Below, piece by piece: positions 1,813 through 59,830 of a DNA stretch of 64,000 nucleotides. The DNA lies in NCBI RefSeq assembly GCF_044647545.1, contig NZ_CP172818.1; one strand, 5' to 3'. Position numbers and translations under genes: made by a program. Numbering within the stretch: position 1 is the first letter of the stretch; every line of letters starts with the position of its first letter. The stretch comes from Escherichia coli. GTDB taxonomy: Bacteria > Pseudomonadota > Gammaproteobacteria > Enterobacterales > Enterobacteriaceae. Below the pieces are notes generated by a model. The model ran no database searches. It was not told the DNA's origin and was given only the letters and a program-made list of their open reading frames with translations.

Positions 1813-2493
1813 GTGATGCAGGAAAATAGTCCTTTGCTTCAGCTACAAAACGTAGGATATCTGGCGGGTGATGCGAAGATTCTTAATAACATCAATTTTT
1901 CGCTGCGTGCTGGCGAATTTAAGTTAATTACCGGTCCTTCTGGTTGTGGCAAAAGTACGCTGCTAAAAATAGTTGCTTCATTGATCAGCCCAACCAGCGG
2001 AACGTTACTGTTTGAAGGTGAGGATGTCAGCACACTAAAGCCAGAAATCTACCGCCAGCAAGTCTCTTATTGCGCCCAGACGCCGACGCTGTTTGGCGAC
2101 ACGGTATACGATAATCTGATCTTTCCTTGGCAGATCCGTAACCAGCAGCCTGACCCAGCCATTTTTCTCGATTTTCTCGAACGCTTCGCCTTACCGGACA
2201 CCATTTTGACGAAGAATATCGCCGAGCTATCTGGTGGGGAAAAACAACGCATCTCATTGATTCGTAACCTGCAATTTATGCCGAAGGTTTTATTGCTGGA
2301 TGAAATAACCAGTGCGCTGGACGAAAGTAATAAACATAACGTTAATGAGATGATCCACCGTTATGTGCGCGAGCAAAATATTGCCGTGCTGTGGGTGACA
2401 CACGATAAAGACGAAATTAATCATGCGGATAAAGTGATTACACTGCAACCGCATGCCGGAGAAATGCAGGAAGCACGCTATGAACTCGCATAA
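1813..2493 (+). CDS. fetA: ABC transporter ATP-binding protein FetA
   Basis: Walker A GPSGCGKST and LSGGEKQR signature motifs. Confidence 0.85.
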   Translation: MMQENSPLLQLQNVGYLAGDAKILNNINFSLRAGEFKLITGPSGCGKSTLLKIVASLISPTSGTLLFEGEDVSTLKPEIYRQQVSYCAQTPTLFGDTVYDNLIFPWQIRNQQPDPAIFLDFLERFALPDTILTKNIAELSGGEKQRISLIRNLQFMPKVLLLDEITSALDESNKHNVNEMIHRYVREQNIAVLWVTHDKDEINHADKVITLQPHAGEMQEARYELA

Positions 2494-3259
2494 TATTACT
2501 AACGAATCATTAGCACTGGCATTGATGCTGGTGGTGGTGGCAATCTTAATTAGCCATAAAGAAAAACTGGCGCTGGAGAAAGATATTCTCTGGAGCGTCG
2601 GGCGCGCGATAATCCAGCTGATTATTGTCGGCTATGTGCTGAAGTATATTTTCAGCGTGGATGATGCCAGCCTGACATTATTGATGGTGTTATTTATCTG
2701 CTTTAATGCGGCGTGGAATGCGCAAAAACGCAGTAAATATATTGCTAAAGCTTTTATCTCATCGTTTATTGCCATTACGGTCGGGGCGGGAATTACCCTG
2801 GCGGTGCTGATTCTCTCAGGGTCGATTGAATTTATCCCGATGCAGGTGATCCCTATCGCCGGGATGATAGCCGGTAACGCCATGGTAGCGGTGGGGTTGT
2901 GTTACAACAATTTAGGGCAACGGGTGATTAGCGAACAGCAACAGATTCAGGAGAAACTGAGTCTTGGCGCGACGCCGAAACAGGCTTCAGCGATATTGAT
3001 TCGCGACAGTATTCGCGCTGCTTTAATTCCGACGGTCGATTCAGCAAAAACGGTAGGCTTAGTGAGTTTACCAGGAATGATGTCCGGGCTGATATTTGCC
3101 GGGATTGATCCGGTGAAGGCGATTAAATATCAGATTATGGTGACCTTTATGCTGCTCTCAACCGCCAGCCTGTCGACCATTATTGCCTGCTATTTAACCT
3201 ATCGTAAGTTTTACAATTCGCGCCACCAGTTGGTGGTGACGCAATTGAAGAAGAAATGA
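2480..3259 (+). CDS. fetB: ABC transporter permease FetB
   Basis: Polytopic membrane ORF overlapping fetA 3-prime end; start chosen at MNSHNIT. Confidence 0.8.
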   Translation: MNSHNITNESLALALMLVVVAILISHKEKLALEKDILWSVGRAIIQLIIVGYVLKYIFSVDDASLTLLMVLFICFNAAWNAQKRSKYIAKAFISSFIAITVGAGITLAVLILSGSIEFIPMQVIPIAGMIAGNAMVAVGLCYNNLGQRVISEQQQIQEKLSLGATPKQASAILIRDSIRAALIPTVDSAKTVGLVSLPGMMSGLIFAGIDPVKAIKYQIMVTFMLLSTASLSTIIACYLTYRKFYNSRHQLVVTQLKKK

Positions 3260-3265
3260 TGCAAT

Positions 3266-3291
3266 GCCGGATGCGCAGCATCGCATCCGGC
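3266..3291. terminator. REP-like GC hairpin between convergent fetB and ybbN
   Basis: Inverted repeat GCCGGATGCG/CGCATCCGGC with 6-nt loop. Confidence 0.4.
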
Positions 3292-3321
3292 GTTGTGGTT
3301 CATGTGCCGATCAACGGAAAC

Positions 3322-4218
<897 letters not shown>

Positions 4219-45707: not shown

Positions 45708-46016
45708 GTGACTCACATGACAAAAACAGTATCAACCAGTAAAAAACCCCGTAAACAGCATTCGCCTGAATTTCGCAGTGAAGCCCTGAAGCTTGCTGAA
45801 CGCATCGGTGTTACTGCCGCAGCCCGTGAACTCAGCCTGTATGAATCACAACTCTACAACTGGCGCAGTAAACAGCAAAATCAGCAGACGTCTTCTGAAC
45901 GTGAACTGGAGATGTCTACCGAGATTGCACGTCTCAAACGCCAGCTGGCAGAACGGGATGAAGAGCTGGCTATCCTCCAAAAGGCCGCGACATACTTCGC
46001 GAAGCGCCTGAAATGA
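45708..46016 (+). CDS. insE: IS3 transposase OrfA
   Basis: 102 aa [35 protein letters not shown]. Confidence 0.9.
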
Positions 46017-46879
46017 AGTATGTCTTTATTGAAAAACATCAGGCTGAGTTCAGCATCAAAGCAATGTGCCGCGTGCTCCGGGTGGCCCGCAGCGGCTGGT
46101 ATACGTGGTGTCAGCGGCGGACAAGGATAAGCACGCGTCAGCAGTTCCGCCAACACTGCGACAGCGTTGTCCTCGCGGCTTTTACCCGGTCAAAACAGCG
46201 TTACGGTGCCCCACGCCTGACGGATGAACTGCGTGCTCAGGGTTACCCCTTTAACGTAAAAACCGTGGCGGCAAGCCTGCGCCGTCAGGGACTGAGGGCA
46301 AAGGCCTCCCGGAAGTTCAGCCCGGTCAGCTACCGCGCACACGGCCTGCCTGTGTCAGAAAATCTGTTGGAGCAGGATTTTTACGCCAGTGGCCCGAACC
46401 AGAAGTGGGCAGGAGACATCACGTACTTACGTACAGATGAAGGCTGGCTGTATCTGGCAGTGGTCATTGACCTGTGGTCACGTGCCGTTATTGGCTGGTC
46501 AATGTCGCCACGCATGACGGCGCAACTGGCCTGCGATGCCCTGCAGATGGCGCTGTGGCGGCGTAAGAGGCCCCGGAACGTTATCGTTCACACGGACCGT
46601 GGAGGCCAGTACTGTTCAGCAGATTATCAGGCGCAACTGAAGCGGCATAATCTGCGTGGAAGTATGAGCGCAAAAGGTTGCTGCTACGATAATGCCTGCG
46701 TGGAAAGCTTCTTTCATTCGCTGAAAGTGGAATGTATCCATGGAGAACACTTTATCAGCCGGGAAATAATGCGGGCAACGGTGTTTAATTATATCGAATG
46801 TGATTACAATCGGTGGCGGCGGCACAGTTGGTGTGGCGGCCTCAGTCCGGAACAATTTGAAAACAAGAACCTCGCTTAG
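46013..46879 (+). CDS. insF: IS3 transposase OrfB (DDE)
   Basis: 288 aa DDE integrase-core ORF in -1 frame relative to orfA. Confidence 0.9.
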
Positions 46880-47522: not shown

Positions 47523-47553
47523 AAATAATTTGTTTCTAAACGACTAAAATATG

Positions 47554-47587
47554 GAGGCTCTTATATTTATATGAGCCTCGTTTTATG
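47554..47587 (+). terminator. Rho-independent terminator after emrE
   Basis: GAGGCTC-12 nt loop-GAGCCTC followed by GTTTT. Confidence 0.5.
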
Positions 47588-47778
47588 CTTTTTGTTAATG
47601 TCTTTATTTTTTTATGTATTCTTTTGTGCTTTCAAGATTATGGCGTAAGAAAATTGCAATACGATTATTGTTGTATATTCAAGATAATGTGACCTTAATT
47701 GTCTTTTTAAATAAAAATTAAACAAAAATTATATCCCACCACTAAGGTTTATAAAAGCATACGTTAGCAGGTGTCACC

Positions 47779-49305
47779 ATGAAAAAAGCCATAGCATATA
47801 TGCGATTTTCATCACCAGGTCAGATGTCTGGCGACTCATTAAACCGACAGAGAAGACTTATTGCTGAATGGTTAAAGGTAAATAGTGATTATTATCTTGA
47901 TACCATAACATATGAAGATTTAGGATTAAGTGCATTCAAAGGAAAGCATGCACAATCAGGAGCTTTTTCGGAATTTTTAGATGCTATAGAGCATGGTTAT
48001 ATATTGCCAGGAACTACATTGTTAGTTGAAAGTCTGGACAGACTTTCAAGAGAAAAAGTCGGTGAAGCGATTGAACGTCTGAAATTGATTTTGAATCACG
48101 GTATTGATGTTATAACTCTTTGCGACAATACAGTCTATAATATTGACTCTTTGAATGAGCCATATTCATTAATAAAAGCCATACTTATAGCACAAAGGGC
48201 AAATGAAGAAAGCGAGATAAAGTCAAGTCGGGTTAAATTATCATGGAAGAAAAAACGGCAGGATGCACTGGAATCAGGTACGATTATGACGGCGTCTTGT
48301 CCGAGATGGCTCTCCTTAGATGACAAAAGAACGGCTTTTGTTCCAGACCCCGACAGGGTGAAAACTATTGAGCTAATTTTTAAACTCAGGATGGAAAGGC
48401 GCTCATTGAATGCAATAGCCAAGTATTTAAATGATCATGCTGTAAAGAATTTCTCAGGAAAAGAAAGTGCATGGGGACCTTCTGTAATTGAAAAATTATT
48501 AGCGAATAAAGCTCTGATAGGTATATGCGTACCTTCATATCGTGCAAGAGGTAAAGGAATAAGTGAAATCGCTGGCTATTATCCCAGAGTCATATCAGAT
48601 GATTTGTTTTACGCTGTACAGGAAATTCGGTTGGCACCTTTTGGTATTAGCAATAGTAGCAAAAATCCTATGTTGATAAATCTACTTCGAACAGTTATGA
48701 AGTGCGAGGCTTGTGGTAATACCATGATTGTTCATGCGGTATCTGGAAGTTTGCATGGCTATTATGTTTGTCCGATGAGAAGACTGCATCGATGTGACAG
48801 GCCATCAATAAAGAGAGATTTGGTTGATTATAATATCATTAATGAGTTGCTTTTTAATTGTAGTAAAATCCAACCAGTTGAAAACAAGAAAGATGCTAAT
48901 GAAACTTTAGAGTTGAAAATTATTGAGCTCCAGATGAAAATTAATAATTTAATTGCTGCATTATCTGTTGCGCCTGAAGTTACCGCTATAGCAGAAAAAA
49001 TCAGAGTATTAGATAAGGAATTACGAAGGGCTTCTGTATCATTAAAAACTTTGAAGAGTAAAGCGGTGAGTTCACTTGGTGATTTTCATGCTATTGACTT
49101 AACCAGTAAAAATGGGCGAGAGCTATGTCGTACACTTGCCTATAAAACATTCGAAAAAATCATAATCAATACAGATAATAAAACCTGTGATATCTATTTT
49201 ATGAATGGCATTGTTTTTAAACACTATCCTTTAATGAAAACAATATCCGCCCAGCAGGCGATAAGTACTCTCAAATATATGGTTGATGGTGAGGTTTATT
49301 TTTGA
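47779..49305 (+). CDS. ybcK: Large serine recombinase-like protein
   Basis: N-terminal resolvase catalytic domain (AYMRFSSPGQ), recombinase domain and Cys-rich zinc ribbon. Confidence 0.85.
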   Translation: MKKAIAYMRFSSPGQMSGDSLNRQRRLIAEWLKVNSDYYLDTITYEDLGLSAFKGKHAQSGAFSEFLDAIEHGYILPGTTLLVESLDRLSREKVGEAIERLKLILNHGIDVITLCDNTVYNIDSLNEPYSLIKAILIAQRANEESEIKSSRVKLSWKKKRQDALESGTIMTASCPRWLSLDDKRTAFVPDPDRVKTIELIFKLRMERRSLNAIAKYLNDHAVKNFSGKESAWGPSVIEKLLANKALIGICVPSYRARGKGISEIAGYYPRVISDDLFYAVQEIRLAPFGISNSSKNPMLINLLRTVMKCEACGNTMIVHAVSGSLHGYYVCPMRRLHRCDRPSIKRDLVDYNIINELLFNCSKIQPVENKKDANETLELKIIELQMKINNLIAALSVAPEVTAIAEKIRVLDKELRRASVSLKTLKSKAVSSLGDFHAIDLTSKNGRELCRTLAYKTFEKIIINTDNKTCDIYFMNGIVFKHYPLMKTISAQQAISTLKYMVDGEVYF

Positions 49306-49500
49306 GTAATAATCTTTTTTACGTCGTGCTATAGTAAGAAAGTGCAAGACAGAATTAATTATCTTTGACGAAACTTAATGGGTAATTACTTTGTTTGCTC
49401 CCACAAGCGAGTTTTGTACGGCTGTATTGGGGTAGTAAATGAGCTATACAATCTTAATCATTTGTTAGGTGAGAACTCTTGGTCGCAGATTCAAATACTG

Positions 49501-49550
49501 AAAATACGTGACAAATTATTATGAGCAAAATGGTGTATGTCACGTATTTT
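49501..49550. repeat. Perfect 13-bp inverted repeat (AAAATACGTGACA / TGTCACGTATTTT) with 24-bp spacer
   Basis: Read directly in ybcK-ybcL intergenic region. Confidence 0.6.
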
Positions 49551-49762
49551 GAATGGTAGGTTAAAAAATAACACCGACTTTCGTAGGTATTACTAATAAT
49601 AAAGCAGAGTTTTTAGATAGTATCAATGTGCTTTGTGTATATTGTGGCAAATAATTGGGTTGCTGAGGGGTAGAATGTGATTGCTTTTGCATGAACACTT
49701 TATGCATAATGAGATAAAGGAATATCAAATAAAGAACGATAGGTCATAACAAAGAGGTTTTT

Positions 49763-50312
49763 ATGAAAACACTTATCGTTTCAACTGTATTGGCATTCAT
49801 AACATTTTCTGCGCAGGCTGCAGCATTTCAGGTCACTAGTAATGAAATAAAAACAGGAGAGCAACTTACAACGTCTCATGTCTTTCTCGATTTGGGTGTG
49901 AAGGTGGTAATACATCGCCCTCATTAACCTGGTCTGGTGTTCCTGAAGGTACCAAAAGCTTTGCCGTAACTGTATATGATCCAGATGCACCTACAGGCAG
50001 TGGTTGGTGGCATTGGACTGTTGTTAATATTCCAGCAACAGTAACATATTTTCCGTTGATGCAGGGAGACGTGATGGAACAAAACTGCCGACTGGTGCTG
50101 TTCAAGGCCGAAATGATTTTGGCTATGCTGGGTTTGGTGGCGCATGTCCTCCTAAAGGAGATAAACCACATCATTACCAGTTTAAAGTATGGGCTCTAAA
50201 AACTGAAAAGATTCCTGTAGATTCTAACTCCAGCGGAGCGTTAGTTGGTTATATGCTTAATGCTAATAAAATCGCAACCGCTGAGATAACACCAGTTTAT
50301 GAGATAAAGTAG
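49763..50312 (+). pseudogene. ybcL: PEBP/RKIP-family periplasmic protein gene disrupted by two single-base frameshifts
   Basis: Signal peptide frame stops after 54 codons; [13 protein letters not shown] segment in -1 frame; [10 protein letters not shown] segment in a further -1 frame; total 550 bp. Confidence 0.75.
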
Positions 50313-50321
50313 GGTGAGAGT

Positions 50322-51119
50322 ATGCTGGCAAGAGGTAAGACTAACTTAAAGATCGAAGAAATACGGATGCATAAACATCATGAGATTCATAGGGTTAAGC
50401 CTCTTATGCCAGCTTTGTGTCGTATCCGTCAGGGAAAGAAAGTTATCAATTGGGAGACGCATACTTTAACTGTTGATAATAATCAAATAATATTATTTCC
50501 TTGTGGTTATGAATTTTATATTGAGAATTATCCTGAAGCAGGGCTTTATCTTGCAGAAATGCTTTACTTACCCATTGATTTAATTGAGAGTTTCCAAAAA
50601 CTTTATACGGTAACTGATCAAATACGTAACAAAACAAGTTTCTTTTTACCTCAGAATCCTGAGTTAATATATTGTTGGGAGCAACTAAAAACATCTGTTT
50701 CCCGAGGCTTCTCAACTAAAATTCAGGAGCACTTAGCAATGGGCGTTCTACTTTCGTTAGGAGTGAATCATGTTAATCATTTACTTTTATCATATAGTAA
50801 ACAATCATTGATAAGTCGTTGTTATAACCTGCTGCTATCCGAACCCGGCACAAAATGGACAGCAAACAAGGTTGCTCGATATCTCTACATTTCTGTTTCT
50901 ACATTACATCGCCGTCTAGCAAGCGAGGGGGTAAGTTTCCAAAGTATACTGGACGATGTGAGGTTAAATAATGCGTTGTCTGCTATACAAACGACGGTAA
51001 AACCTATAAGCGAGATTGCCAGAGAAAATGGTTATAAGTGTCCTTCTCGTTTTACTGAAAGATTTCATAATCGTTTTAATATAACACCAAGAGAGATAAG
51101 AAAAGCTTCCAGAGAGTAA
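50322..51119 (+). CDS. ybcM: AraC-family transcriptional regulator
   Basis: C-terminal AraC HTH ([26 protein letters not shown]). Confidence 0.8.
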
Positions 51120-51333
51120 AAGTGTTTTAAGAAGGAGCAATTCTATCGATTTTGATTTGCGATAATCAACTCGCCATAATCATGTCATCGGAGCCTGAAC
51201 AACTCCGGTGACTTCTGCGCTAAACGGGGACGTTTATGCGCACACACAATCCAAACTCTCTTCTCCCTCCACAGATGCAGAAATGCACCTGCGATATATT
51301 GTATCCAGCGTTTGACCTCTGCGGAGGTGAAGC

Positions 51334-58330: not shown

Positions 58331-58662
58331 TGTGGTACCTTCCATGTGATATGAGGGGCGTAGTCTGCACGATTATCTAAATTGCTTCAATCTGGTCTGA
58401 TTTTTGAGAATTTAAATAAGCAGATTAGAAGGGAAACGCTGAAATTCATGTTGTTTTCAATAAACAAAGAATGGACGAAAAATCATAAAGACAATACTGC
58501 CAGGACAGGTTAAAAACTATCTTAATACACATTCGATGGTTAGATGTTTAATCATGTATAGAACATCATACCTAAAATACTAAAAGCAAAAGAAACGAAG
58601 GAATCCTCTATAATTAATCTATCAAAGAAGAGAATACGTATCTGACTAAGAGACTAATCAAC

Positions 58663-58896
58663 TCAGCAATCCTCGTATTTAGGGAATACAATACGTCCAG
58701 TGTCACTCTTTTCTTTGTTTGCTTCAGGAGAAACTCTTTTTTCTGAGCACAGTCTCCGGCGGCAGGCTTCAATGACCCAGGCTGAGAAATTCCCGGACCC
58801 TTTTTGATCAAGAGCGATGTTAATTTGTTCAATCATTTGGTTAGGAAAGCGGATGTTGCGGATTGTTGTTCTGCGGGTTCTGTTCTTCGTTGACAT
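58663..58896 (-). CDS. ylcI: DUF3950-family small protein
   Basis: ORF MSTKNRTRRTTIRNIRFPNQMIEQINIALDQKGSGNFSAWVIEACRRR. Confidence 0.65.
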   Translation of the reverse strand: MSTKNRTRRTTIRNIRFPNQMIEQINIALDQKGSGNFSAWVIEACRRRLCSEKRVSPEANKEKSDTGRIVFPKYEDC

Positions 58897-59079: not shown

Positions 59080-59284
59080 GATCCGACAGGTTACGGGGCG
59101 GCGACCTCGCGGGTTTTCGCTATTTATGAAAAATTTCCGGTTTAAGGCGTTTCCGTTCTTCTTCGTCATAACTTAATGTTTTTATTTAAAATACCCTCTG
59201 AAAAGAAAGGAAACGACAGGTGCTGAAAGCGAGCTTTTTGGCCTCTGTCGTTTCCTTTCTCTGTTTTTGTCCGTGGAATGAACA
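59080..59284 (+). other. Lambda-type cos region: cosN (GGGCGGCGACCT at 59096-59107) and cosB upstream of Nu1
   Basis: Sequence matches remembered lambda left-end and right-end junction ...CGACAGGTTACG|GGGCGGCGACCTCGCGGGTTTTCGCTATTTATGAAAA. Confidence 0.8.
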
Positions 59285-59830
59285 ATGGAAGTCAACAAAA
59301 AGCAGCTGGCTGACATTTTCGGTGCGAGTATCCGTACCATTCAGAACTGGCAGGAACAGGGAATGCCCGTTCTGCGAGGCGGTGGCAAGGGTAATGAGGT
59401 GCTTTATGACTCTGCCGCCGTCATAAAATGGTATGCCGAAAGGGATGCTGAAATTGAGAACGAAAAGCTGCGCCGGGAGGTTGAAGAACTGCGGCAGGCC
59501 AGCGAGGCAGATCTCCAGCCAGGAACTATTGAGTACGAACGCCATCGACTTACGCGTGCGCAGGCCGACGCACAGGAACTGAAGAATGCCAGAGACTCCG
59601 CTGAAGTGGTGGAAACCGCATTCTGTACTTTCGTGTTGTCGCGGATCGCAGGTGAAATTGCCAGTATTCTCGACGGGCTCCCCCTGTCGGTGCAGCGGCG
59701 TTTTCCGGAACTGGAAAACCGACATGTTGATTTCCTGAAACGGGATATTATCAAAGCCATGAACAAAGCAGCCGCGCTGGATGAACTGATACCGGGGTTG
59801 CTGAGTGAATATATCGAACAGTCAGGTTAA
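59285..59830 (+). CDS. nohD: Terminase small subunit (Nu1 homolog)
   Basis: 181 aa [39 protein letters not shown], matching remembered lambda Nu1. Confidence 0.9.

Follow-up and report, generated by a model that had tools for sequence, protein, structure and literature searches.

A perfect inverted repeat in the ybcK-ybcL junction of a DLP12-like prophage of Escherichia coli and its candidate functions

Genes and inverted repeat of the ybcK-ybcL junction

The window analysed here is a stretch of 64,000 nucleotides of Escherichia coli (contig NZ_CP172818.1 of assembly GCF_044647545.1). It represents a DLP12-like lambdoid prophage and is not K-12 itself. The inverted repeat lies in the nin region, where the genes are ordered ren (interrupted by IS3), emrE, ylcJ, ybcK, the repeat, ybcL, ybcM, ybcN, ninE, rusA and Q. 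The gene names proposed in the initial annotation hold, as the neighbours match emrE, ylcJ, ybcK, ybcL and ybcM of K-12. The same module occurs in the nin region of functional phages, PhiR34_1 among them, which encode a tyrosine integrase of their own. The IS3 element within ren (45708-46879) is located upstream of emrE. emrE is followed on the plus strand by a terminator hairpin that we read from the sequence (47553-47586), composed of GGAGGCTC, a 12-nt loop, GAGCCTC and a T-rich tail, and a positional counterpart of this terminator is found in E. albertii. The start codon of ylcJ (47571-47648) overlaps the 3′ stem of the emrE hairpin, and the ylcJ frame reaches a stop after 25 codons in the window vs. 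49 codons in K-12.

ybcK (47779-49305, plus strand) encodes a large serine recombinase. The protein matches the Pfam families Resolvase, Recombinase and Zn_ribbon_recom, all above the curated cut-offs, as well as PHROG 95 ('integrase', E = 4e-120), and comparison by sequence with defence-system models and solved structures yielded no matches. Its relatives in Enterobacterales are 40-61% identical, and the catalytic columns are invariant across 21 members of the family. The gene is followed by a tail of 38 bp that is common to all ybcK alleles (49306-49343), and then by a non-coding segment of 268 bp (49344-49611), which contains the repeat and forms the 5′ flank of a phage-borne ybcL-ybcM cassette. 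ybcL (49763-50312, plus strand) is a member of the PEBP family (Pfam PBP in the K-12 copy) and is a pseudogene in the window, having lost single bases near 49882 and near 50051 by comparison with K-12. ybcM (50322-51119, plus strand) encodes an AraC-family regulator (Pfam HTH_18 and HTH_AraC) and is 100% identical to the K-12 gene. The ybcLM promoter is found at 49644-49676 on the plus strand, with a −35 element GTGGCA at 49644-49649 and a −10 element TAGAAT at 49671-49676. In K-12 this promoter was described as constitutive, with the elements GTGGCA-17-TACAAT (Shimada 2014, PMC3946193); the spacer of 17 nt in K-12 is 21 nt long in the window. The ybcLM unit looks decayed here, as judged by the deletions in ybcL, the longer promoter spacer and a 6-bp deletion in the region of the YbcM footprint (see below); ybcM is intact.

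The ybcK stop at 49305 and the ybcL ATG at 49763 delimit the AT-rich gap of 457 bp that had been noted initially, and the repeat-bearing segment within it has a G+C content of 34%. The arms of the repeat were recovered by a repeat finder at the positions given before, 49501-49513 for the left arm (AAAATACGTGACA) and 49538-49550 for the right arm (TGTCACGTATTTT). They are 13 nt long and 100% complementary, the right arm being the exact reverse complement of AAAATACGTGACA, and they enclose an asymmetric spacer of 24 bp (49514-49537, AATTATTATGAGCAAAATGGTGTA). The left arm begins with AAAA, mirroring the TTTT with which the right arm ends. The edges are sharp, with the bases that flank the arms unpaired and GAATGG directly 3′ of the right arm. 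The stem is AT-rich, with four G-C pairs out of 13. Within the spacer three of the 12 positions in each half are symmetric, which equals the random expectation, and the central dinucleotide of the repeat (GC, 49525-49526) is self-complementary. Rfam covariance models found no match at E ≤ 1 between 47000 and 52000. A 48-codon ORF that ends in the repeat matched no protein family and had no relatives among 1.84 billion representative sequences.

The repeat is real and single-copy, and it is placed in junction DNA. It had been considered too long to arise by chance in 64 kb, and for this one window a chance origin is indeed unlikely: perfect inverted repeats with arms of 13 bp or more and no more than 60 bp between them number two here, vs. 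0.025 per window in dinucleotide-shuffled sequence. The argument does not carry over to the genome, since 0.025 repeats per 64 kb amount to about two per 5-Mb genome, and on that scale chance could provide such a repeat. The search for further copies of the half-site that had been suggested returned, within the window, six matches with up to two mismatches, both arms included, vs. 1.9 expected, and hence no extra copy above chance. The repeat also lacks the multicopy character of a mobile-element terminal repeat or MITE, being present at one place per genome in 674 of 674 carrier genomes and having no second copy in the window.

The other perfect repeat of this class in the window has arms of 16 bp and a spacer of 25 bp (59204-59260, AGAAAGGAAACGACAG...). 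It is separated by 25 bp from the downstream Nu1 terminase gene, which starts at 59285, and constitutes the cos-proximal hairpin of the lambda type. Its geometry of arms and spacer is similar to that of the ybcK-ybcL repeat. However, its sequence is unrelated, it is located in the cos/terminase region and it is common to phage lambda itself.

Mosaic joints and conservation of the repeat-bearing segment

Three arrangements of these genes are found in E. coli. The full emrE-ylcJ-ybcK-segment-ybcLM module is present in about 670 genomes; in the second arrangement emrE-ylcJ-ybcK is followed by unrelated DNA from 49344 onward; and in the third, found in most genomes, a chromosomal emrE-ybcL-ybcM locus of approximately 92% identity has no ybcK. 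The segment is missing from the latter two. The homology of the ybcK-only prophages to the window stops at 49343, and that of the chromosomal loci resumes at 49612 in E. coli and at approximately 49576 in E. albertii. Neither the repeat nor its half-site was found at the non-phage ybcLM loci of E. coli, E. albertii, Salmonella, Cedecea and a compost isolate. A comparison with E. albertii would put the repeat within approximately 3-25 bp of an ancient right end of the ybcK insert, but the alignment of this AT-rich DNA is so weak that the joint is not fixed by it.

Recombination has also shaped the window: ybcK is 97.2% and the 38-bp tail 70.7% identical to K-12, and both represent an allele like those of locus L005 and O157, while the DNA from 49344 to 51119 is the K-12 allele (99.3-100% identical). 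The tail is the stretch most diverged between the window and K-12, and the mosaic joint, 49343/49344, is at its 3′ edge. Taken together with the joints of the ybcK-only prophages, this recombinant structure indicates that the segment is exchanged along with ybcLM in phage mosaics, at the joint 49343/49344. By these comparisons the palindrome belongs to the phage-borne ybcLM cassette and not to ybcK. In locus L005 positions 2299-3834 replace 49344-51149 of the window and carry an Ant-like ORF and the abortive-infection gene BstA instead of ybcLM, and O157 (L176) carries a deletion derivative of the second arrangement. The slot that follows ybcK is a point of cargo exchange with fixed joints, occupied by ybcLM in some phages and by BstA in others.

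Recombinases of the YbcK family recur beside variable cargo at other loci as well (L007 6001-7530; L018 6001-7530; L017, L021 and L022). Their settings include a lambdoid nin region of Atlantibacter and, in Cedecea, a place beside folD where a P2-like prophage ends. Edaphovirga has at least two copies of the family, whose common sequence starts 135 bp upstream of the ATG; transposition was considered as the source of these copies and rejected, as several prophages with a common mosaic joint explain them better.

The segment was found in 674 of the 5,426 E. coli genomes searched and is at least 98.9% identical in all 674; three phage copies and 33 viral-contig copies are identical. The 50-bp repeat site is unchanged in 671 of the 674 genomes. 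Strain LR-28 carries a G to A change at 49510, in the left arm, which is uncompensated in the right arm. The diversity of the segment (0.0039) is the same as that of the neighbouring genes, so that approximately 0.9 variable sites are expected per 50 bp, and a 70-bp block with the repeat varies in 93 genomes vs. 73 and 128 for blocks without it. No diverged copies were found among E. coli genomes, phages, plasmids and viral contigs, and no partial or split copies in the 5,426 genomes. The only partial copy, in a viral contig (L129), was examined as a candidate rearrangement and turned out to reflect IS5, inserted into a TTAG target 36 bp away from the repeat (window 49465). As all copies are near-identical, their conservation is uninformative and a covariation test is impossible.

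Regulatory and recombination sites as candidate explanations of the repeat

Two numbering systems of MG1655 are used in papers on the ybcK-ybcLM locus and are easily confused. We therefore give positions after calibration with motifs printed in two other papers, including a sigma-54 motif. The old numbering assigns 570,116 to the ybcL ATG and 569,850-569,899 to the repeat, and approximately 770 bp must be added to obtain positions in NC_000913.3. This offset between the systems produces an apparent coincidence of a PhoB peak with the repeat: the peak at 569,907 (PMC10294691), which would put a PhoB site on the right arm, was rejected as a numbering artefact. The PhoB ChIP-seq motif, TGTCACATCGATGTAATC, corresponds to approximately 48782-48799 of the window, inside ybcK, and is on the minus strand in K-12. 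ChIP-exo of YbcM, carried out under one condition, paraquat, reported 12 sites genome-wide, one of them near ybcL (570,015-570,048, signal-to-noise 357; Gao et al. 2021, PMC8464067). Read in the old numbering, these coordinates place the footprint (GTACAATTGTGATTGC...) over the −10 element of the ybcLM promoter, at a distance of 115 bp downstream from the repeat, whereas the new numbering would shift it into ybcK; neither position coincides with the repeat. Its equivalent in the window is at approximately 49670-49703 and is altered by the 6-bp deletion. Cappable-seq (old numbering) places the ybcL start at 570,094, relative to which the footprint spans −79 to −46 and the repeat is centred at approximately −220, and on the plus strand it shows no start between those internal to ybcK and that of ybcL (568,538 to 570,094).

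AraC-family proteins can loop DNA to distal sites, and the repeat, approximately 220 bp upstream of a ybcL start that is autoregulated by an AraC-family protein, resembles in this respect distal AraC-type operators such as araO2. The initial annotation had suggested that it is the operator of YbcM; ybcM lies 0.8 kb downstream, and autoregulation of ybcLM by YbcM was reported (PMC8464067). However, the sole ChIP-exo site of the locus is the one on the promoter, between −79 and −46, and nothing was seen at the repeat. In addition, the footprint and the arms have by eye only the tetranucleotide GTGA in common, so that the repeat does not resemble the proximal site as a distal operator would, and it is absent upstream of ybcL in the five non-phage contexts. 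For the condition tested, paraquat, the suggestion is contradicted, and we regard an operator of YbcM at the repeat as very improbable. A factor other than YbcM, encoded by the host or by the phage, might use the repeat as a distal regulatory site of ybcLM or as the operator of an antisense promoter, which we consider quite unlikely. Such a role would fit the joint inheritance of segment and ybcLM cassette in three independent phage recombinants. It would also fit a sigma-70-like match on the minus strand (49515-49543, GTGACA-17-AATAAT, 10 of 12 positions), the best in 4.6 kb, which has its −35 element in the right arm, its −10 element AATAAT in the spacer and its predicted start in the left arm, so that a protein bound to the arms would cover it. 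Yet promoter-like matches occur at the rate found in shuffled sequence (16 vs. 15.8 expected), and the nearby selection peaks of PhoB, sigma-54 and RpoD/RpoS map elsewhere. The centres of the arms are 37 bp apart, equivalent to 3.5 helical turns, so that they lie on opposite sides of the helix, at a separation too large for an ordinary dimeric operator. The distance of approximately 220 bp to the ybcL start and the lack of both repeat and half-site in the five non-phage ybcLM contexts argue against it as well.

The other role suggested initially was that of a recombination site for YbcK. The repeat would then be an attP-type site on which a dimer of the recombinase covers 50 bp, with the zinc-ribbon domains on the arms and cleavage at the centre. 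The contacts of a serine integrase dimer with attP extend over approximately 50 bp, with the motif of the zinc-ribbon domain at positions 16-24 (Rutherford 2013, PMC3783163), and the repeat is exactly 50 bp long and symmetric at half-site positions 13-25. Its first base is 196 bp downstream of the ybcK stop, and the catalytic residues of this recombinase are conserved throughout the family; few other DNA-binding dimers would be expected to span so wide a site. In size, distal symmetry, asymmetric core and adjoining recombinase gene it resembles the attP sites of large serine integrases (A118/LI, Bxb1, phiC31), and its geometry is compatible with the suggestion, but none of the comparative tests supports it. 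Many E. coli prophages, that of O157 included, keep an intact ybcK without the segment; the window joins a different ybcK allele to the same segment at 49343/49344; and no repeat of a comparable kind follows the gene at 12 of 14 orthologous or ybcK-only loci, so that repeat and recombinase are not inherited together. A search of the window and of the orthologous loci for attB-like or attP-like partners gave nothing above chance. The segment is intact in 674 of 674 genomes, with no partial copy among the 5,426 genomes, and hence without products of the attL/attR type. Over positions 1-12, the inner part that the recombinase domain would occupy, symmetry does not exceed chance level. To our knowledge, known serine-integrase sites use asymmetric central dinucleotides, whereas the self-complementary GC at the centre of the repeat would abolish polarity. 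The phages that carry the module integrate by their own tyrosine integrase. We therefore judge it unlikely that the repeat is an attP-type site of YbcK, and marginally less likely still that the palindrome is the cognate attP-like site by which DLP12-type phages would carry in their nin region a second, serine-recombinase module for integration or cargo capture, adjacent to the slot at which cargo such as ybcLM or the BstA defence gene is swapped.

The outer arms of the repeat have a partial likeness at 58632-58680, GAATACGTA-N31-CTCGTATTT, with mismatches at 3 of 18 positions; the number of such pairs is within the chance range.

A possible hairpin terminator or neutral palindrome

It had also been suggested that the arms could pair as a stem in RNA, and folding makes this part of the initial annotation plausible, although the predicted hairpin is not a canonical terminator. 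The 13-bp stem is predicted in both the MFE and the centroid structures on both strands. On the plus strand the MFE is −19.9 kcal/mol over 96 nt (z = −2.0 vs. shuffles), and on the minus strand it is −18.7 kcal/mol (z = −3.2), with none of 200 shuffles as stable. The plus strand also has an inner helix of 6 bp (three A-U and three G-U pairs) that closes a loop of 7 nt and is absent on the minus strand. Canonical terminators have a stem of at least 4 bp, a stem-loop of at most 59 nt and a loop of 3-13 nt, with a median loop of 4 nt among those mapped by Term-seq, and in bidirectional terminators an upstream A-tract pairs with the U-tract (PMC12207403). The repeat offers a perfect stem of 13 bp within 50 nt in total. 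Its loop of 24 nt is outside the range, and 7 nt is reached only if the inner helix of the plus strand is counted. The only U-tract is the TTTT that forms the last four bases of the right arm, inside the stem. A consensus terminator scan restricted to loops of 3-8 nt did not flag the repeat, and it likewise missed the emrE terminator. The Term-seq tables of PMC7815308 list no 3′ end at the repeat and only one internal to ybcK, which is weak evidence given the poor expression of the prophage.

We tentatively propose that the repeat is a weak, non-canonical, possibly bidirectional intrinsic terminator or insulator hairpin. RNA extending through ybcK would fold the two arms into the 13-bp stem, which on the plus strand the short inner helix would extend, and the stem would end in four U, paired with the AAAA at its 5′ end. 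Such a hairpin would reduce the transcription that reads into the autoregulated ybcLM promoter, approximately 95 bp downstream, or it might stabilise an upstream 3′ end. The hairpin is predicted by folding, and from it we infer that the repeat may terminate or stabilise a transcript. By our own estimate the A4/T4 ends have a chance of approximately 1% in a random AT-rich 13-mer arm. The repeat is placed in the untranslated 457-bp gap between units on the same strand, approximately 95 bp upstream of the −35 element of ybcLM, a position between one unit and the promoter of the next that would suit an insulating terminator. The obvious hairpin terminator with a 12-nt loop at the end of the upstream emrE unit counts in the same direction. 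Lambdoid nin regions hold several terminators (tR2-tR4). The likeness to bidirectional intrinsic terminators thus lies in the perfect stem flanked by AAAA and TTTT, the folding on both strands, the length below the limit of 59 nt and the intergenic position at a unit end; the differences lie in the loop of 24 nt, the four U within the stem, the AT-rich stem and the lack of a mapped 3′ end.

Almost as likely, in our estimate, is that the repeat is a neutral palindrome, a functionless passenger that arose in AT-rich, silenced junction DNA by chance or by template switching (quasi-palindrome correction). About two such repeats are expected per genome, and a genome-wide scan should meet them. The 674 genomic, three phage and 33 viral-contig copies represent one recently spread allele, in which perfect arms need no selection. 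The diversity of the segment does not differ from that of the neighbouring genes, the number of genomes with variation is similar for blocks that contain the repeat and blocks that do not, and the arm variant of LR-28 persists uncompensated. The segment sits between two mosaic joints, and the site is unmarked in the YbcM ChIP-exo, the PhoB ChIP-seq, the Term-seq tables and plus-strand Cappable-seq. Against neutrality stands the rarity of the repeat within the window, which is approximately 40-fold relative to chance (0.025 expected). Its sharp edges and A4/T4 outer ends give it a more ordered appearance than expected of a random match, and the only other such repeat in the window occupies a functional position, before the terminase gene. 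We place the terminator or insulator hairpin only slightly ahead of the neutral palindrome.

Under none of these readings would the repeat be an element of a new kind. In K-12 YbcM has its operator on the ybcLM promoter and not at the palindrome. If the repeat were a site of YbcK, it would open a way to study this widespread recombinase, which E. coli K-12 also encodes. If it is a terminator or insulator, as we tentatively favour, it would be one more moron-boundary signal in the lambdoid nin region.
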